Assembly (NCBI GenBank): GCA_021788015.1
Contig: JAJYLD010000002.1
Location: 135,033-199,032, forward strand
Reading direction: 5' to 3'
DNA length: 64,000 nucleotides
From: a bacterium
GTDB lineage: Bacteria > Patescibacteriota > Patescibacteriia > Patescibacteriales > JAKAJF01
This document shows positions 3,508 to 60,431 of this stretch, piece after piece. Position 1 is the first letter of the stretch, and each line of letters opens with the position of its first letter. Below the pieces are notes generated by a model. That model was given only the letters and a program-made list of their open reading frames with translations. It searched no databases and was not told where the DNA came from. The translations under genes and the position numbers were made by a program.

Positions 3508-4155
3508 ATGCCGACTTATTTAAACGAATACATTTCCTATACAAAAAAGAAAACCGCTTACATTCCGGTCGGAACGATTGAGTGGCACGGCAGCCATCTT
3601 CCGATTGAAACCGATTTTTTGGTCGCGCAAAAAATTTGCGGATTGCTTCAAAAGAAAAAAGACGGTTATGTTTTGCCGCCGATTTATTTGGGGACTGACA
3701 CTATGGAAGAGAAAAACGGGAAAAAATTAATCGGCATGGATCGCGCGCTAGGCAAAGAATTAAAAGGCAGCCTTTATTATGTTGAGCCGGAGCTATTTCA
3801 AGAAATGATAAAAAGCTTGGTTGAGAACCTTAAAAAAGATGGGTTTAAAAAATGTTATATTGTTACGGGGCATGCCGGCTCCGCCCAAATTAAAACGTTG
3901 AAGAAACTTGAAAACAAAATTGTGCGACTGATTGATCCATACGAACTTTTTAGCGTTAATGTCGAGCATGCGGATGAATATGAAACTTCTCTTTTTTGGG
4001 CGTGCTATCCGGAAGAAGAAAAGAAAAGCCGGGCGATAAAAATTTCTGCGAACGATGATTTTATAAAGGACATGGGATACGATGTTCGAGAGAAAGCGTC
4101 TTTGAAAATCGGAAAGAAAATGTTAAAAGAAATGTTAAATAAAATTAAAATATGA
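3508..4155 (+). CDS. Creatininase-family amidohydrolase
   Basis: Carries EWHGSHLPIETD, GHAGSAQ and HADEYETS, which match the family's metal-binding motifs. Confidence 0.75.
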   Translation: MPTYLNEYISYTKKKTAYIPVGTIEWHGSHLPIETDFLVAQKICGLLQKKKDGYVLPPIYLGTDTMEEKNGKKLIGMDRALGKELKGSLYYVEPELFQEMIKSLVENLKKDGFKKCYIVTGHAGSAQIKTLKKLENKIVRLIDPYELFSVNVEHADEYETSLFWACYPEEEKKSRAIKISANDDFIKDMGYDVREKASLKIGKKMLKEMLNKIKI

Positions 4156-4163
4156 GCATGAAT

Positions 4164-4277
4164 CCCGCTAGAAGCCGCGATCGCTTTTACGGGAGTAGAT
4201 AAAAACACGGATTTAAAAAATTGTAACTTACGCAGACACAATCTAAATTGTTTTGATCGCGATCTGCTTCTAACGGG
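4164..4277 (+). mobile_element. MITE-like inverted-repeat element, copy A
   Basis: Arms are CCCGCTAGAAGCCGCGATCGC (4164-4184) and GATCGCGATCTGCTTCTAACGGG (4255-4277). Flanked by ATGAAT (4158-4163) and GTGAAC (4278-4283). Homologous along its length to 59999-60103. Confidence 0.55.
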
Positions 4278-4775
4278 GTGAACACTCTTTATATTTTTGG
4301 GGCAAAATACTTTATTTATTTGATTATTCTTGCTGCTGTTATTTGTTTCTTTTTTTTGAATCGCGAAAAGAAAAAAGAAGCGATCGTTTTTAGCGTTATC
4401 GCATTGCCGATTATTTATATCGTCGCGAAAATAGGCGGCACGCTTTATTACGATCCGCGACCGTTCATCGTCGGCCATTTCACGCCCTTGATTTCACATT
4501 CTCCCGATAACGGTTTTCCTTCCGACCATGCTTTGCTCGCGAGCGCTCTGGCTATGGTCGCGCATTATTTTAATAAAAAGGCGGGAATTATATTTTGGCT
4601 TTTTGCCATCCTCGTCGGCGCTTCTCGCGTTCTCGTCGGCGTTCATCATGCGATCGATATTGTCGGTAGCATGATCATTTCCATAGTCGTAGCCGCGTTC
4701 GTTTATAAATTTATTTTTCCGCGCATTCTTAGATCCGAATTTTATAAAAATTTAAGCATCCCCTTTTTAAAATAA
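4278..4775 (+). CDS. PAP2-family phosphatase (undecaprenyl-diphosphatase-like)
   Basis: Motifs PSDHA and SRVLVGVHHAIDIVGS; multi-TM. The start codon is GTG. Confidence 0.75.
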   Translation: MNTLYIFGAKYFIYLIILAAVICFFFLNREKKKEAIVFSVIALPIIYIVAKIGGTLYYDPRPFIVGHFTPLISHSPDNGFPSDHALLASALAMVAHYFNKKAGIIFWLFAILVGASRVLVGVHHAIDIVGSMIISIVVAAFVYKFIFPRILRSEFYKNLSIPFLK

Positions 4776-5222: not shown

Positions 5223-5909
5223 TTAAACCTCTCTTGGTATCGGATGGTAAAGTTCCCTAATCCATTGGGTAATTATTTCCGGTTGCTTCGGAGCCCTTGC
5301 TCCGGGCAACTTTTTAAGAAAGCATACAGTCTCTTCCAGCTCTTCTCTGATCTTTCCGGACTTATCCTCAATCGTCATGTCGAGATATGGCCGTTTCGGG
5401 GCTTCGGCGAGCCGTTTAAGTATGAGAGGAAGCTCTTCTAGGGAAATGGACTCCGCATTAATTTTAAAAACCGGCTCCCTGACCTCCTCATATCTCTCGT
5501 AAGCTCGCCTAAGTTCGTTTTGGTAAAGGGTAAGCTCTCTGAAAAGGCGGTCGCAGTAATCCATGAGGACCGCGCGGTTGCCCGGAATTTCCAGGAAGTC
5601 TTTTTCGGGCTCTTTTTCTTTCGGAAGCATGCCCCTGTCTTCCAAAACGGTTAAGGCGGTTTCGTTGTATTGGGCAATGCGTTTTTTAAGAAGTCTTATG
5701 CCACTGCCAGTGGAAAATATCAGGGCTCTTTTTAGAAAGACGTCCGCCTCTGCCACATCCTTTTTGTTTTTAGACAGGATTTTGGCAACCAGCCCCTCTA
5801 TAAATTTTTCGCTCTCGGACGAAACGCTGCCAATGACGATTGCAAAATCATTCAGAATCCGACCAGTTCTTTCGTTTAATGCCTTAAGGCTAAACGATCT
5901 TTGTTTCAT
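5223..5909 (-). CDS. Hypothetical helical protein
   Basis: The ORF track starts at 5930. I prefer the ATG at 5909 (MKQRSF..) because it forms an ATGA overlap with the stop of the upstream small ORF. Confidence 0.5.
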   Translation of the reverse strand: MKQRSFSLKALNERTGRILNDFAIVIGSVSSESEKFIEGLVAKILSKNKKDVAEADVFLKRALIFSTGSGIRLLKKRIAQYNETALTVLEDRGMLPKEKEPEKDFLEIPGNRAVLMDYCDRLFRELTLYQNELRRAYERYEEVREPVFKINAESISLEELPLILKRLAEAPKRPYLDMTIEDKSGKIREELEETVCFLKKLPGARAPKQPEIITQWIRELYHPIPREV

Positions 5910-11718: not shown

Positions 11719-11925
11719 CGCTGCGCTAAGCCCTACTTTTTGTAACCAAAAAATAGGCCAACCCGTCCGCAATGCTTCGCATAGCGATGCGGGCAGGGAA
11801 GTTTTGGGTGCTCCAATTCGCTATCACAATGATTTAGCTTTAGATTGTTTCGCCTTGACGCTTCCGCCTCGGCGAGTCTAAGGCGAGACGGGCAACCCCG
11901 CCCCCAAACCCCACGGTGTTTTGAG
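11719..11925. ncRNA. Structured non-coding repeat, copy 1; family and strand unknown
   Basis: By hand alignment it is about 85-90% identical to 60191-60395. It has several hairpins, one with a compensatory change between copies, and no conserved ORF. Confidence 0.5.
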
Positions 11926-33320: not shown

Positions 33321-34769
33321 ATGAGTCTGGCCGTTAAAGTCGCCCACAATACTTTAATCCAAATCGTTTCCAAGACTATTTCCACGGTTTTGGGGCTTGT
33401 TGCCGTGGCTGTAATTACCCGTTATTTGGGCCAATTCGGTTTTGGAGAATACACAACCGTCGTTACTTTTCTTTCTTTTTTCGGCATCATTATTGATTTC
33501 GGGCTGGTTCTGGTCACAACCCAAATGATCAGCGAGCCGGGAGCGGACGAAAATCGGATTTTAAGCAACCTTTTTACTTTGCGTTTTTTTTCCGCCCTTG
33601 TTTTTTTGGGTTTGGCGCCGATCATCGTATTGTTTCTTCCTTACGGCGGGGCAATAAAGGCGGGAGTGGCCGTTGCCGCCCTTTCTTTTTTCTTCATCAG
33701 CCTCAATCAAATTTTTACCGGTTTGTTTCAAAAGGAATTGCGCATGGAAAAGGCTTCCATCGCCGAGGTGTCCGGAAGAGTTTTTTTGGTTATGGGCGTT
33801 TTGGCGACGGTGCGTTGGAGCTGGGGCCTTCTCGGAGTTTTGGCGACAACATCGTTATCGAGTGGTTTGAATTTCGCCCTCAATTACGCTTTTTCGAGAA
33901 AATTCGCGAAAATCAAATTTCGTTTCGAAAAAGAAGTTTGGAAAGAGATTTTTCATCGCTCCTGGCCGTTAACCGTAACGATTATTTTTAATTTGATTTA
34001 TTTAAAAACGGATACTCTGATTTTGTCTTTGGTCAAAACTCAATCCGAAGTCGGCATTTATGGCGCCGCTTATAAAGTCATCGACGTTCTCGTTACCATT
34101 CCTTTTATGTTCGCCGGATTGGTTTTACCTATCATGACAGTCGCCTGGGCGGAAAAAAACCTTGATAAACTTAAAAACATTTTACAAAAATCATTTGATA
34201 CAATGGCCGTATTCGCTTTGCCGCTTTTGTTCGGAACGGAATTTTTGGCGACAAAGGTGATGGTATTCGTCGCCGGGCGGGAATTCGCTCCTTCCGGAGA
34301 CGTGCTTCGCGTTTTAATCCTGGCGGCAAGCATTATTTTTTTGGGAACGGTCTTCGCTCACGGCATTATCGCCATCAACAAGCAGAAAAAATTAATCGGC
34401 GCTTACGTTTTCACGAGCGCGACTTCTCTGGCCGGCTATTTGATTTTCATCCCCCCGTATTCTTATTTCGGCGCCGCCTGGGTTACGATTTATAGTGAAT
34501 TTTCCATCGCTTTGTTGACTGCCTATGTTTTTTGGAGATTTACGCGCTTTCTTCCTCGTCTCCGCATTTTTTTAAAATCCGCGATCGCTTCTCTTTTCAT
34601 GCTTTTAATGCTAAATTTGGGAAATTTGCTTTCGGGAAATCTTTTTTTTCTGCTCGTCTTGAGCTCCGTTTCTTATTTTGTTTTTCTTTATTTAATCGGC
34701 GGGCTTAATTTTATCTCCATTCGGGAAGTTGTCTTCGGGCAAAAACAAAAAAATTTATCAGGCGGATGA
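33321..34769 (+). CDS. Wzx/MOP-type oligosaccharide flippase
   Basis: Polytopic protein of 482 aa with an N-terminal pattern typical of polysaccharide biosynthesis flippases. Confidence 0.65.
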   Translation: MSLAVKVAHNTLIQIVSKTISTVLGLVAVAVITRYLGQFGFGEYTTVVTFLSFFGIIIDFGLVLVTTQMISEPGADENRILSNLFTLRFFSALVFLGLAPIIVLFLPYGGAIKAGVAVAALSFFFISLNQIFTGLFQKELRMEKASIAEVSGRVFLVMGVLATVRWSWGLLGVLATTSLSSGLNFALNYAFSRKFAKIKFRFEKEVWKEIFHRSWPLTVTIIFNLIYLKTDTLILSLVKTQSEVGIYGAAYKVIDVLVTIPFMFAGLVLPIMTVAWAEKNLDKLKNILQKSFDTMAVFALPLLFGTEFLATKVMVFVAGREFAPSGDVLRVLILAASIIFLGTVFAHGIIAINKQKKLIGAYVFTSATSLAGYLIFIPPYSYFGAAWVTIYSEFSIALLTAYVFWRFTRFLPRLRIFLKSAIASLFMLLMLNLGNLLSGNLFFLLVLSSVSYFVFLYLIGGLNFISIREVVFGQKQKNLSGG

Positions 34770-34850
34770 CGATAAGGGTAAAATATAAACAGAATTATAA
34801 TTCACGCGGATGCAATCAAAAAATTTTGAACGGGGTCCGCTTTTAACGGG

Positions 34851-35921
34851 ATGAATAAAAACATAATCGTATTTAATTCCAAAGAGAATTTTTTGGAGCC
34901 TCTTTTCGAGGAACTTAAAAAAAGAAATTATAATTTTATTTTTTTAGATTCAATTTTTAGAGACGCAAACACTTTTTTGGGGAAAGTGGCATTTTTAATC
35001 GTCTTGCCTTTGCTTAGAATGATTTATTTTTTTTATTTTTTGTTTTTGAATCATAAGTACAAATTTGAAGCGGCCATTCTTTTTAATTTGAACGAAAAAT
35101 TGATTTTTTCTCCTTTGGTGCGTGTTTTGAAGAAAAAAATAATTTGGGTAGAATTGCCGGAAAATGATTTCAAAATGAAAAAATTTTTTAAAAGGCTCTA
35201 TCGTATGAATGCAAAGGTAGCAAAAATTATCGTGTTTAACGAGTACGGAAAAATCAAACTGCAGAACTTGGGAGTGAAGACGGAAAATATCGAGATAGTT
35301 CAGCCGGGAATAAAATTGAATCAAAATCAATATCAGGAAAATATTTTTTCGGGATTGGTCAGGGAAGAAACAAAAATAAAAAATTTTTTTACGGTCGGGA
35401 CGGTTATCGACGCGGGTCGGGAGCATAATTTGGACACCTTGCTTCAGGCCATAAAAATTTGCGCGGAAATAATTCCCAATATTCAACTTATCGTCGTGAG
35501 CAACGTACCCGACAAGAAAAATTTGAATTGGTCTGCAAAAAAAATGGGTATCGACAATTTGGTCTGGTTCGTAGGCGGCGAAAAATACAGCCGCCGCTGG
35601 TATGACAATTTTGAAATTTTTATTGTCGGCAACAAGGTTTTAAATTTACGCGATTTGGAAATCGTTTTAAGGAGCATGCGCGCCGGACTTCCGGTTATCG
35701 GCCCTGTGAATCGCGGCCTGGAAGACATAGTTTACGAAAATAAAACCGGTAGCCTGATCGAGGCGCAAAACAGCGAAATGCTCGCCCGGCAAATAATTAA
35801 ACTTTACCAAGACAGACGTCTTCGTTTAAGACTGGGCCAGATCGCCAAAGAAAGAGTGAAGGAGTTTTTTACGATCGAAAACCAGATTGAAAAATTTGAA
35901 GAATTATTGTTAAATGGTTAA
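34851..35921 (+). CDS. Glycosyltransferase (GT4-like)
   Basis: C-terminal GT-B motifs: AGLPVIGP..G..DIV.....G.L.E. Confidence 0.6.
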   Translation: MNKNIIVFNSKENFLEPLFEELKKRNYNFIFLDSIFRDANTFLGKVAFLIVLPLLRMIYFFYFLFLNHKYKFEAAILFNLNEKLIFSPLVRVLKKKIIWVELPENDFKMKKFFKRLYRMNAKVAKIIVFNEYGKIKLQNLGVKTENIEIVQPGIKLNQNQYQENIFSGLVREETKIKNFFTVGTVIDAGREHNLDTLLQAIKICAEIIPNIQLIVVSNVPDKKNLNWSAKKMGIDNLVWFVGGEKYSRRWYDNFEIFIVGNKVLNLRDLEIVLRSMRAGLPVIGPVNRGLEDIVYENKTGSLIEAQNSEMLARQIIKLYQDRRLRLRLGQIAKERVKEFFTIENQIEKFEELLLNG

Positions 35922-59998: not shown

Positions 59999-60103
59999 CC
60001 CGTTAGAAGCAGATCGCAATCAAAATGATTGATATCCGCATAATTATTTTAAATTCGTGTTTTTCATGTTTATTGCTGCTGAAGCGCCATAGTCTTTAAC
60101 AGG
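59999..60103 (-). mobile_element. MITE-like inverted-repeat element, copy B
   Basis: Minus-strand arms are CCCTGTTAAAGAC and GATTGCGATCTGCTTCTAACGGG. Flanked by perfect ATGAAT direct repeats (59993-59998 and 60104-60109). The proximal arm matches 4255-4277 at 22 of 23 positions. Confidence 0.6.
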
Positions 60104-60117
60104 GATTCATGAATCAA

Positions 60118-60142
60118 ATTTAAAACGGAACTTAAGGTTCCG
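60118..60142 (-). terminator. Minus-strand terminator-like hairpin
   Basis: Stem CGGAAC/GTTCCG with a T-run only on the minus strand (TTTTAAAATTT). No annotated minus-strand gene lies upstream of it. Confidence 0.4.
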
Positions 60143-60190: not shown

Positions 60191-60395
60191 CGCTGCGCTA
60201 GGCCTTACTTTTTGTAATCAAAAAGTAAGCCAACCCGTCCGCAATGCTTCGCATAGCGATGCGGGCAGGGAAGTTTCGGGGGCTCCAATTCGCTATCACA
60301 TTGATTTATCTTAAAGTTATTTCGCCTTGTCGCTTCCGCCTCGGCGAGCTTAAGGCGAGACGGGCAATTCCGCCTCCAAACCCCGTGGTTTGTTG
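60191..60395. ncRNA. Structured non-coding repeat, copy 2
   Basis: See 11719-11925. Lies between the divergent infB and ruvB genes, outside the predicted leaderless ruvB transcript. Confidence 0.5.
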
Positions 60396-60431
60396 AAAAC
60401 GAGTCGCGTCTATATATTTCATGTTTCCGTA

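Follow-up and report, generated by a model that had tools for sequence, protein, structure and literature searches.

A 64,000-nucleotide stretch of DNA from a member of the Patescibacteriota (contig JAJYLD010000002.1 of assembly GCA_021788015.1, positions 135,033 to 199,032 of the forward strand; this whole stretch is hereafter called the window) contains a short hairpin-forming element that directly abuts the start codon of a gene for a PAP2-family phosphatase. As judged by sequence comparison, this element is not a species-level MITE (a miniature transposable element with inverted repeats) but belongs to a family that is found throughout the Candidate Phyla Radiation (CPR) and has a conserved internal open reading frame (ORF). 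We consider it rather probable that the family represents a non-autonomous, MITE-like mobile unit of about 115 bp that is specialized for start codons, and that translation of the downstream gene is kept by coupling to the internal ORF. The comparisons that underlie this reading concern the inverted termini, the repetition of the start codon in the flanks, the multicopy state, presence versus absence at orthologous sites, a fixed orientation, a constraint on reading frame and the conservation of one copy located in front of rplV.

The element at the PAP2 start codon

The copy in front of the PAP2 gene and its flanks are composed of the following features.

3508-4155, plus strand: creatininase-family ORF, the 3' end of which holds a promoter-like match
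4123-4151, plus strand: sigma-70-like match TTAAAA-N17-TAAAAT, a match to consensus only, within the 3' end of the creatininase-family ORF
4158-4163, plus strand: upstream duplicated start ATGAAT, which opens a 14-codon ORF (4158-4202)
4164-4184, plus strand: left terminal inverted repeat CCCGCTAGAAGCCGCGATCGC, one change from the family consensus CCCGTTAGAAGCCGCGATCGC
4185-4254, plus strand: variable interior, as aligned with the copy in front of infB
4253-4273, plus strand: residual mini-ORF TTG ATC GCG ATC TGC TTC TAA (M-IAICF-stop), which stops at a conserved TAA
4255-4277, plus strand: right terminal inverted repeat GATCGCGATCTGCTTCTAACGGG, the exact family consensus
4278-4775, plus strand: gene for a PAP2-family phosphatase of 165 amino acids, whose first six nucleotides GTGAAC are the downstream duplicate

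The two arms pair over 12 bp (with one C:A mismatch), a 4-nt bulge and an additional 7 bp, and the corresponding RNA hairpin has a minimum free energy of -34.4 kcal/mol (z = -3.3) that was equalled by only 1 of 200 shuffles. GCAGA at 4232-4236 in the interior is also able to pair with TCTGC of the right arm. This copy has intact arms, an internal ORF that has lost its ATG (ATAAAAACACGG versus ATGAAAAACACGA in the infB copy) and a downstream gene that now starts with GTG. The residual mini-ORF stops 4 nt before the PAP2 start, and an MIAICF mini-ORF is present in other copies as well. On the upstream side, TAAAAT at 4146-4151 is followed by the 6-nt spacer ATGAGC and then by the ATG at 4158, from which the short ORF encodes MNPARSRDRFYGSR before its stop codon.

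A preliminary description of this region had listed the arms, the ATGAAT and GTGAAC flanks, the TAAAAT hexamer with its six following nucleotides and the 14-codon ORF, all of which are present where it placed them. It had also noted that the 23-nt right arm recurs with 22 of 23 positions identical in front of infB, and this match is indeed found at 59999-60021 (minus strand), where chance predicts none (expectation 0.00 at up to three mismatches). To judge from the start of a homologous gene and from flank statistics across the family (both described below), ATGAAT at 4158-4163 is a relic of the ancestral PAP2 start and GTGAAC at the present start is its drifted form.

The same description had further proposed that the interrupted gene was leaderless. 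The layout on which this was based, a -10-like hexamer followed by six nucleotides and an ATG, does precede both full copies in the window, where 7 of 61 long ORFs have a TATAAT-like hexamer exactly 6 nt before their ATG, some 3.5-fold above the background of other spacings.

2975, 16185, 21199, 29311 (minus strand) and 60435: hexamers of this layout, with ATGs that include 16197, 21211 and 60447

However, family-wide the layout accompanies only about 13% of the upstream ATGs, roughly the same frequency as for ordinary genes. The upstream flank resembles an ordinary former gene start. It is plausible that the PAP2 gene was originally leaderless, and the match at 4123-4151 is possibly the native, leaderless-type promoter of the gene as it existed before insertion. 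Other genes in the window have clear GGAGG sites, and the organism seems to mix leaderless-type genes with genes led by Shine-Dalgarno sequences.

A family with near-invariant ends

A degenerate pattern of the right arm, scanned against one genome per species, matched at least 112 stretches in at least 73 metagenome-assembled genomes (MAGs) of Patescibacteria/CPR, while a scan of JGI metagenomes with the left arm provided at least 120 further stretches that were used as an independent replicate set. The family counts given here and below (n = 124, 107, 106 and 102; replicate n = 107 and 104) are counts among the matches listed. All of the listed right-arm matches fall in Patescibacteria/CPR, from many classes, or in unclassified bins. 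The taxa represented include Kerfeld-, Levy-, Davies-, Nomura-, Terry-, Lipton-, Sungii-, Wildermuth-, Giovannoni-, Vogel-, Yanofsky- and Zambryskibacteria as well as Paceibacteria.

The right arm nearly always occurs as part of a hairpin, as a check set by the preliminary description required, with a left arm present 60-85 nt upstream of 111 of 124 right arms to form a unit of 110-120 nt (length peak 112-118 nt). Conservation of the ends is not confined to the arm that was used to find them. Among 106 copies in which the left arm played no part in ascertainment, each of its positions is 91-100% conserved, and in the left-anchored set the right arm is exact in 57 of 107 copies and has at most one mismatch in 77 of 107. 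CCCG is preceded by T in 93% of copies and by C in 7%, CGGG is followed by A in 93% and by G in 7%, and the two bases covary, which indicates that the inverted repeat is one pair longer than the arms themselves. The family termini can thus be written as (T)CCCGTTAGAAGCCGCGATCGC ... GATCGCGATCTGCTTCTAACGGG(A). In 2054 of 2120 stem cells, counted over the 12-bp and 7-bp portions of the arms and the pair at the termini (T:A or C:G), the consensus pair is kept, and the mismatches include 20 G:T and 17 A:C. In contrast, the interiors are nearly unalignable across lineages, with a median identity of 0.71 within genomes (up to 0.91) versus 0.61 between them. Sampled loci reach eight copies per MAG, the 64-kb window has three, and minimal hairpins of 45 nt, nested copies and tandem copies are also seen.

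A phage or plasmid origin and membership in a described structured RNA family were considered and rejected. A phage or plasmid origin is opposed by zero matches in IMG/VR, in the INPHARED phages and in the PLSDB plasmids. A described structured RNA family is opposed by Rfam 15, which gave no match in the window at gathering score and only noise at E values up to 10 over 4100-4330. A role of the arms as DNA-uptake sequences was also considered, but it would leave the abutment to ATG unexplained, and a density of about one copy per 20-30 kb lies well below that of known uptake sequences. Full-text literature searches on the arm sequences and on such elements in the CPR gave nothing relevant.

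A number of variants were observed alongside these copies (loci are given by our L numbers). The metagenome loci L159, L163, L207 and about 16 others have a right arm with one extra A (TTCTAAACGGG ATG) that moves the TAA to 5 nt before the ATG. A second subfamily has the same CCCGTTAGA...TCTAACGGG ends with a terminal C:G rather than T:A pair, and is found at L013:5411-5455 (minus strand), L035:2408-2452 (minus strand) and L021:365-~412 (plus strand). Some of its members are minimal hairpins of 45-50 nt, and a further form measures about 85 nt. The flank repeats are 4 nt long (TTTA, TAAA, TTGA), a mini-ORF is absent and the copies lie away from start codons. Members of this subfamily are nested in L040, L061 and L070, and in Terrybacteria one is located inside a 115-nt element. 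Additionally, a very small G+C-rich palindrome, CCTGCCTGCCGGCAGGCAGG and variants of it, separates AGAAGCC from GCGATCGC within the left arm in the unrelated genomes of L015, L028, L060 and L110, and may be a further micro-element that targets the left arm.

Position at start codons and duplication of the target

Between 93% and 95% of copies directly adjoin the ATG of a real gene. In 115 of 124 copies (99 of 104 in the replicate set) this ATG comes immediately after CGGG, and an ORF of at least 60 amino acids extends from it in 95 of 107 copies, while the two remaining frames give 1 and 7. These ATGs are genuine starts, with Pfam domains beginning at residues 1-7 of the downstream GAPDH, TopA, GyrB, PheT, L2, L4, L15, S18, Ddl and RNase J. 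Orientation is fixed in that the right arm always faces the gene, and no left arm occurs at an opposite-strand start. On the other side, an upstream ORF of the same strand in most cases terminates no more than about 10 nt from the left end, its stop being the TGA of ATGA in about ten cases and the TAG of CCCGTTAG in about ten more. The elements are thus situated in tight operon junctions that include those of ribosomal-protein operons.

Direct repeats of the flanks indicate how this position was reached. Repeats of 5 nt are present in 42 of 107 copies versus 16.6 for shuffled pairs (39 versus 18.4 in the replicate), repeats of 6 nt in 17 versus 3.2 (18 versus 6.6) and repeats of 4 nt in 12 versus 7.6 (10 versus 6.2), which we summarize over both sets as a 2.5- to 5-fold enrichment of 4-6-nt repeats over shuffled pairing. 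The repeats consist of ATG plus 1-3 nt, with the left flank reading ATGxy(T) and the gene reading ATGxy, as exemplified by ATGCGT|ATGCGG, ATGTCT|ATGTCT and GTTGAC|GTTGAC, and the upstream ATG is kept in most copies. The preliminary description had modeled a hairpin inserted at a start codon that lies within a duplicated target, with flank repeats at other copies as its check. That part of the model is borne out in both sets, where the direct repeats begin with ATG. In contrast, the 6-bp target that it gave has to be shortened to 4-5 bp, typically ATG plus two nucleotides, because the T that precedes CCCG in 93% of copies forms a pair with the A following CGGG and so acts as part of the element. 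Gene positions 4-5 are purine-rich with T at position 5 in about 2% of copies, whereas ATGAT starts are common in ordinary genes of the window, a difference that points to a real target preference for ATGRR.

Genes with and without the element have also been observed. Orthologous sites differ at the rplC-rplD junction (L109 versus L042) and at a GT2 gene (L005 and L092 versus L024). Homologues of the PAP2 gene that lack the element exist, the closest being 57-63% identical and not syntenic. One of these, L114 from the same sample, starts ATGAATGCG (MNALIIFGAK) and so matches the ATGAAT found upstream of the element in the window. The check for element-free relatives thus succeeded at the level of homologous genes, and no exact empty PAP2 junction was found.

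Insertion would, from the flanks, involve ATG-R-R start sites and a staggered cut of 4-5 bp that is then duplicated. Such a duplication would preserve the end and stop codon of the upstream gene and rebuild an ATG against the right end of the element. An alternative to insertion by a transposase is that the folded single strand is recombined by a host Xer-like tyrosine recombinase, comparable to integron attC or CTX phage attP(+), rather than by DDE transposition. The 12-bp and 7-bp boxes, the conserved asymmetric 4-nt bulge and the variable terminal loop resemble such a substrate, as do tandem junctions in which two arms are separated by 6 nt (for example CTAACGGG-ATGAAT-CCCGTTAG, like a 12-6-12 core site), and a universal host enzyme would explain both invariant ends across the CPR and a missing dedicated transposase. 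However, the targets have only ATGRR in common and, in contrast to dif or attI, contain nothing that resembles the arms, the flank repeats vary in length, and the copies are located within core operons without integron integrase context. We therefore regard this route as improbable.

A separate observation was made at the start of topA in L095 (minus strand), where the element (2258-2370) is followed by a 33-nt topA-like 5' fragment while the real topA start lies at 5430. A segment of about 170 nt, delimited by another inverted repeat (GTCCCGCC...GGCGGGAC), separates the fragment from the topA start and has the appearance of an additional type of small insertion at this gene start.

An internal mini-ORF that ends at the gene start

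An internal ORF of 10-27 codons is present in 70-78% of copies versus 17-22% after shuffling of the interior. ORFs that end at -4 or +4 relative to the gene number 71 of 102 against 22.7 when shuffled (81 of 104 against 17.9 in the replicate), and those in the TAA frame number 53 of 102 against 10.2. In most copies the ATG lies 40-50 nt from the left end. The main frame then runs for 19-24 codons through the right arm to the TAA of TTCTAACGGG, 4 nt before the gene ATG, and yields a peptide ending in ...IAICF. A second frame yields ...DRDLLLTG and ends at a TGA that overlaps the gene start as ATGA. Stop codons in the last 42 nt of the interior are distributed over the three frames as 142, 57 and 138, while the first 23 nt, which precede the ORF, show no bias (56, 66 and 59). 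The use of two frames indicates that translation itself is conserved rather than the peptide, and a conserved functional peptide was rejected on the same ground. An N-terminal extension of the downstream gene was also rejected, as the in-phase frame is open in 8 copies versus 10.8 expected.

An internal sigma-70 promoter that faces the gene was considered as well. A -10-like TAnnnT occurs 6-7 nt before GCAGA in many copies and a promoter-like match is present in the infB copy, while no plus-strand sigma-70 match was found within the PAP2 element and the A/T-rich signal coincides with coding sequence of the mini-ORF. Pairing of the right arm with rRNA as a translation enhancer was rejected, since the duplex with the 3' region of one CPR 16S rRNA was matched by 66 of 1000 shuffles.

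These observations suggest a model of translational coupling. Insertion would part a gene from its former ribosome-binding and promoter context, so that the element would have to supply a replacement. Ribosomes would load on the mini-ORF in the A/T-rich loop, read through the right arm and thereby melt the arm hairpin. Termination 4 nt before the gene ATG, or overlapping it, would then be followed by re-initiation, and only copies in one orientation and register would survive. Coupling of this type would explain why the register is exact and the orientation fixed, why Shine-Dalgarno sequences are absent and why the element is tolerated in essential operons. At the level of sequence the element also resembles coupled leader ORFs elsewhere, with a stop near or overlapping the start and a frame that is kept open by selection.

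Two other ways in which a hairpin could serve the adjoining gene bear on this same evidence. In the first, the element is an RNA-processing cassette whose hairpin would be cleaved, by RNase III for instance, to leave a short or leaderless 5' end on the mRNA, with the internal ORF being incidental. The stable stem of about 19 bp (-34.4 kcal/mol, z = -3.3), the exact adjacency of hairpin and ATG and the common leaderless-type layout in this organism would suit such a role, and the Correia elements of Neisseria are a precedent for processing by RNase III. However, RNase III cleaves within stems and not at their base, processing does not by itself predict frame-specific depletion of stop codons, and the stem mismatches show no strand asymmetry, so we give this idea little credence. 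In the second, a ribosome starts at the upstream ATG on the original signals of the gene, slides over the hairpin and lands on the downstream ATG, as known from T4 gene 60 and mitochondrial byp. Matching ATG(NN) sequences on either side of a stable hairpin, and an upstream ATG in most copies, are what bypass would need, but the gap of about 115 nt exceeds the 27-55 nt of known cases, the take-off codon is not followed by a conserved stop, the upstream flanks have no conserved Shine-Dalgarno sequence and the conserved internal ORF would be left without a role. Bypass is therefore very improbable.

With respect to rRNA tails, positions 1635-1700 of L009 from one CPR MAG contain the 16S motif AAGTCGTAACAAGG followed by ...GTGCGTGGATCAATTAAAC without the CCTCC anti-Shine-Dalgarno tail. 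Assignment of this segment to 16S is uncertain, as the Rfam SSU match spans 1-769.

Constraint at rplV and the possibility of a regulatory role

One copy in front of rplV is orthologous in two species and is 92% identical in its interior, 95% in its left arm and 100% in its right arm plus 6-nt flank, while the flanking genes of the same two species have nucleotide identities of 78% (upstream) and 76% (downstream). Thus, at one orthologous site the element is more conserved than the adjacent ribosomal genes, and it shows signs of what would be purifying selection.

Conservation of this kind is also what would be expected if the element were a domesticated regulatory leader, in which the arms (palindromes GCGATCGC and GATCGCGATC) and hairpin bind a protein or RNA factor present throughout the CPR and thereby place housekeeping genes under one control, with mobility being only its origin. 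In addition to the rplV copy, this alternative draws on termini that are near-invariant across classes while the interiors have diverged to saturation, on downstream genes that are largely growth-related housekeeping genes (infB, gyrB, topA, pheT and ribosomal-protein genes) and on the lack of a transposase in the sampled loci. However, these genes do not form a coherent regulon, as glycosyltransferases, VKOR, a DUF protein and a methyltransferase are also located downstream, and the presence or absence of copies, their nesting and tandem arrangement and the flank duplications point to ongoing or recent mobility. We regard the regulatory leader as somewhat unlikely.

A start-codon-specialized mobile unit with a coupling ORF could also be part of a broader system, which we put forward only tentatively as a doubtful possibility. 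In such a system, the family would be something other than an ordinary selfish MITE, and start-codon homing would occur across the superphylum. Conserved host machinery would read the 21-23-nt ends and position a portable initiation cassette, composed of hairpin and coupling ORF, either at initiation codons or where transcription of leaderless genes begins, so that mobile DNA would serve the CPR as a standard 5' adaptor for a considerable fraction of their essential genes.

Weighing the MITE-like reading against known systems

The mobile, start-codon-specialized reading agrees with what is generally understood as a MITE. The element is small (110-120 nt, well under about 600 bp), has no transposase gene, has terminal inverted repeats and a target duplication, and is both multicopy and polymorphic. 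Several observations nevertheless weigh against this reading or against its coupling component. The approximately 1.6 Mb of flanking sequence yielded neither an autonomous copy nor a transposase bearing these ends, and the sampled loci (approximately 0.95 Mb plus 0.69 Mb) contain no pair of terminal cores more than 260 nt apart. When JGI metagenomes were scanned for an empty PAP2 junction, 0 matches were obtained, and no empty allele within a species was found. The length of the flank repeats varies between 3 and 6 nt, an unusual spread for one transposase. Ends of 21-23 nt that are near-invariant across a superphylum are atypical of MITEs and hint at an additional constraint, and exact ATG abutment in about 95% of copies is perhaps beyond what sequence preference plus selection would produce. 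Both sets of copies were ascertained through one intact arm, which favors young or conserved copies. With regard to coupling, 22-30% of copies, including the PAP2 copy, have no ATG-initiated ORF next to the gene start, and no clear Shine-Dalgarno sequence or -10 box for the internal ORF is found in most lineages. Finally, the lack of strand asymmetry among stem mismatches implies that the arms are constrained as sequence and not demonstrably as sense-strand RNA.

Among known elements, gene-proximal MITEs such as the Correia elements of Neisseria (Correia repeat enclosed elements, CREE) are the closest. These are likewise about 100-150 bp with inverted repeats and a short target duplication, occur in tens of copies per genome with a hairpin transcript, and are gene-adjacent and able to give expression signals to the downstream gene. 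They differ in duplicating TA, in having a variable distance to the gene and either orientation, and in being restricted to one genus. The CPR element, in contrast, abuts the ATG exactly, duplicates the start codon, has a fixed orientation, a coupled mini-ORF and ends shared across the superphylum, and has no known parent insertion sequence (IS). The closest in logic are the introners of eukaryotic algae and fungi, where target duplication rebuilds the interrupted signal (a splice site there, a start codon here) and the element supplies the remaining machinery. Introners are, however, eukaryotic, are spliced out and lie inside coding sequence, while the CPR element is unspliced and a mini-ORF relay is proposed for it. 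The coupling component has its own parallel in termination-reinitiation at ATGA, TAATG and leader ORFs, in which a stop near or overlapping a start removes the need for a Shine-Dalgarno sequence and the ribosome opens structure. Known coupling ORFs are fixed features of operons, whereas that of the CPR rides a mobile cassette in front of unrelated genes.

Three further classes were rejected. Repetitive extragenic palindromic sequences (REPs) and their paired form (REPINs), moved by REP-associated tyrosine transposases (RAYTs), are similar in having paired inverted repeats, a hairpin of about 100 nt, many copies, vertical persistence and an enzyme encoded outside. They differ by a GTAG head, a mostly 3' location, no target duplication and a species-specific sequence, whereas the CPR termini read (T)CCCG, the copies are at 5' ATGs and flank duplications are present. 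No RAYT gene was found in the Pfam-annotated parts of the window contig. Palindrome-associated transposable elements (PATEs) derived from IS200/IS605 have subterminal hairpins but neither terminal inverted repeats nor a target duplication, and they insert 3' of a fixed tetra- or pentanucleotide. Only their right-end geometry (a hairpin and then 10 nt) is similar, while the CPR element has terminal inverted repeats and flank duplications, and its left flank varies with its right flank. Integron attC sites have the R''/R' order RYYYAAC...GTTRRRY and form cassette arrays beside intI and attI. The GTTAGAA-like and TTCTAAC-like boxes of the CPR element are in the reversed order, its copies lie in ribosomal-protein and other core operons, and no integrase-array context is present in the Pfam-annotated parts of the window contig.

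In the literature we found no description of a start-codon-specific element with a coupling ORF, nor of ends so conserved across a superphylum. If the reading is correct, this would be the first bacterial mobile element specialized for start codons, one that is rendered harmless or useful through a rebuilt ATG and a mini-ORF relay. It touches essential CPR genes (infB, gyrB, topA, pheT and those of ribosomal proteins) and bears both on how translation starts without Shine-Dalgarno sequences and on how gene starts are called in CPR genomes. It raises the question of which conserved machinery recognizes 21-23-nt ends that are near-invariant across classes. The invariant arms additionally constitute a simple DNA marker for the CPR and a candidate portable expression cassette.

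Other copies and repeats in the window

A family profile finds exactly three copies in the window (E = 1.7e-18, 2.7e-8 and, for a weak match, 0.24). The approximately 120 nt before infB can be aligned with the PAP2 copy over their whole length, including the upstream ATGAATCCC and a decayed left arm.

60105-60110, minus strand: upstream ATGAAT of the infB insertion, located after a terminator-like hairpin (60126-60142) and TAAATT plus 6 nt
60084-60104, minus strand: degenerate left arm CCCTGTTAAAGACTATGGCGC, as aligned with the PAP2 copy
60022-60104, minus strand: left arm plus interior, which has a promoter-like TAAACA-N18-AATAAT (60072 to 60043)
60003-60041, minus strand: internal ORF ATG CGG ATA TCA ATC ATT TTG ATT GCG ATC TGC TTC TAA, encoding MRISIILIAICF and a stop
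59999-60021, minus strand: right arm GATTGCGATCTGCTTCTAACGGG, 22/23 identical, adjoining the infB ATG at 59998-59996

The internal ORF of this copy has 12 codons and stops 4 nt before the ATG of infB, which is called as a gene of 654 amino acids with domains from IF2_N to IF-2. The third copy, in front of a glycosyltransferase gene, retains only the right half.

34766-34769, plus strand: ATGA relic, whose TGA is the stop of the polysaccharide-synthesis ORF 33321-34769
34770-34850, plus strand: left-truncated or decayed third copy, a weak profile (nhmmer) match at E = 0.24
34828-34850, plus strand: right-arm variant GAACGGGGTCCGCTTTTAACGGG, adjoining the ATG of the glycosyltransferase gene 34851-35921
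34810-34854, plus strand: internal ORF of 14 codons encoding MQSKNFERGPLLTG and a stop, its TGA overlapping the glycosyltransferase ATG as ATGA

This copy also contains TATAAT at 34796-34801 and a GCGGA...TCCGC hairpin.

A separate G+C-rich direct repeat of about 206 nt is located at 11719-11924 and 60191-60396 (plus strand), one copy of which lies between the infB element and ruvB. The two copies are 88-89% identical, and their differences look compensatory in a hairpin (GCCCTAC...TAGGC versus GCCTTAC...TAAGC). The RNA fold has z = -3.95 on the plus strand and -2.97 on the minus strand with no match in Rfam, and the repeat could represent either a structured RNA not yet described or a second family of repeats.

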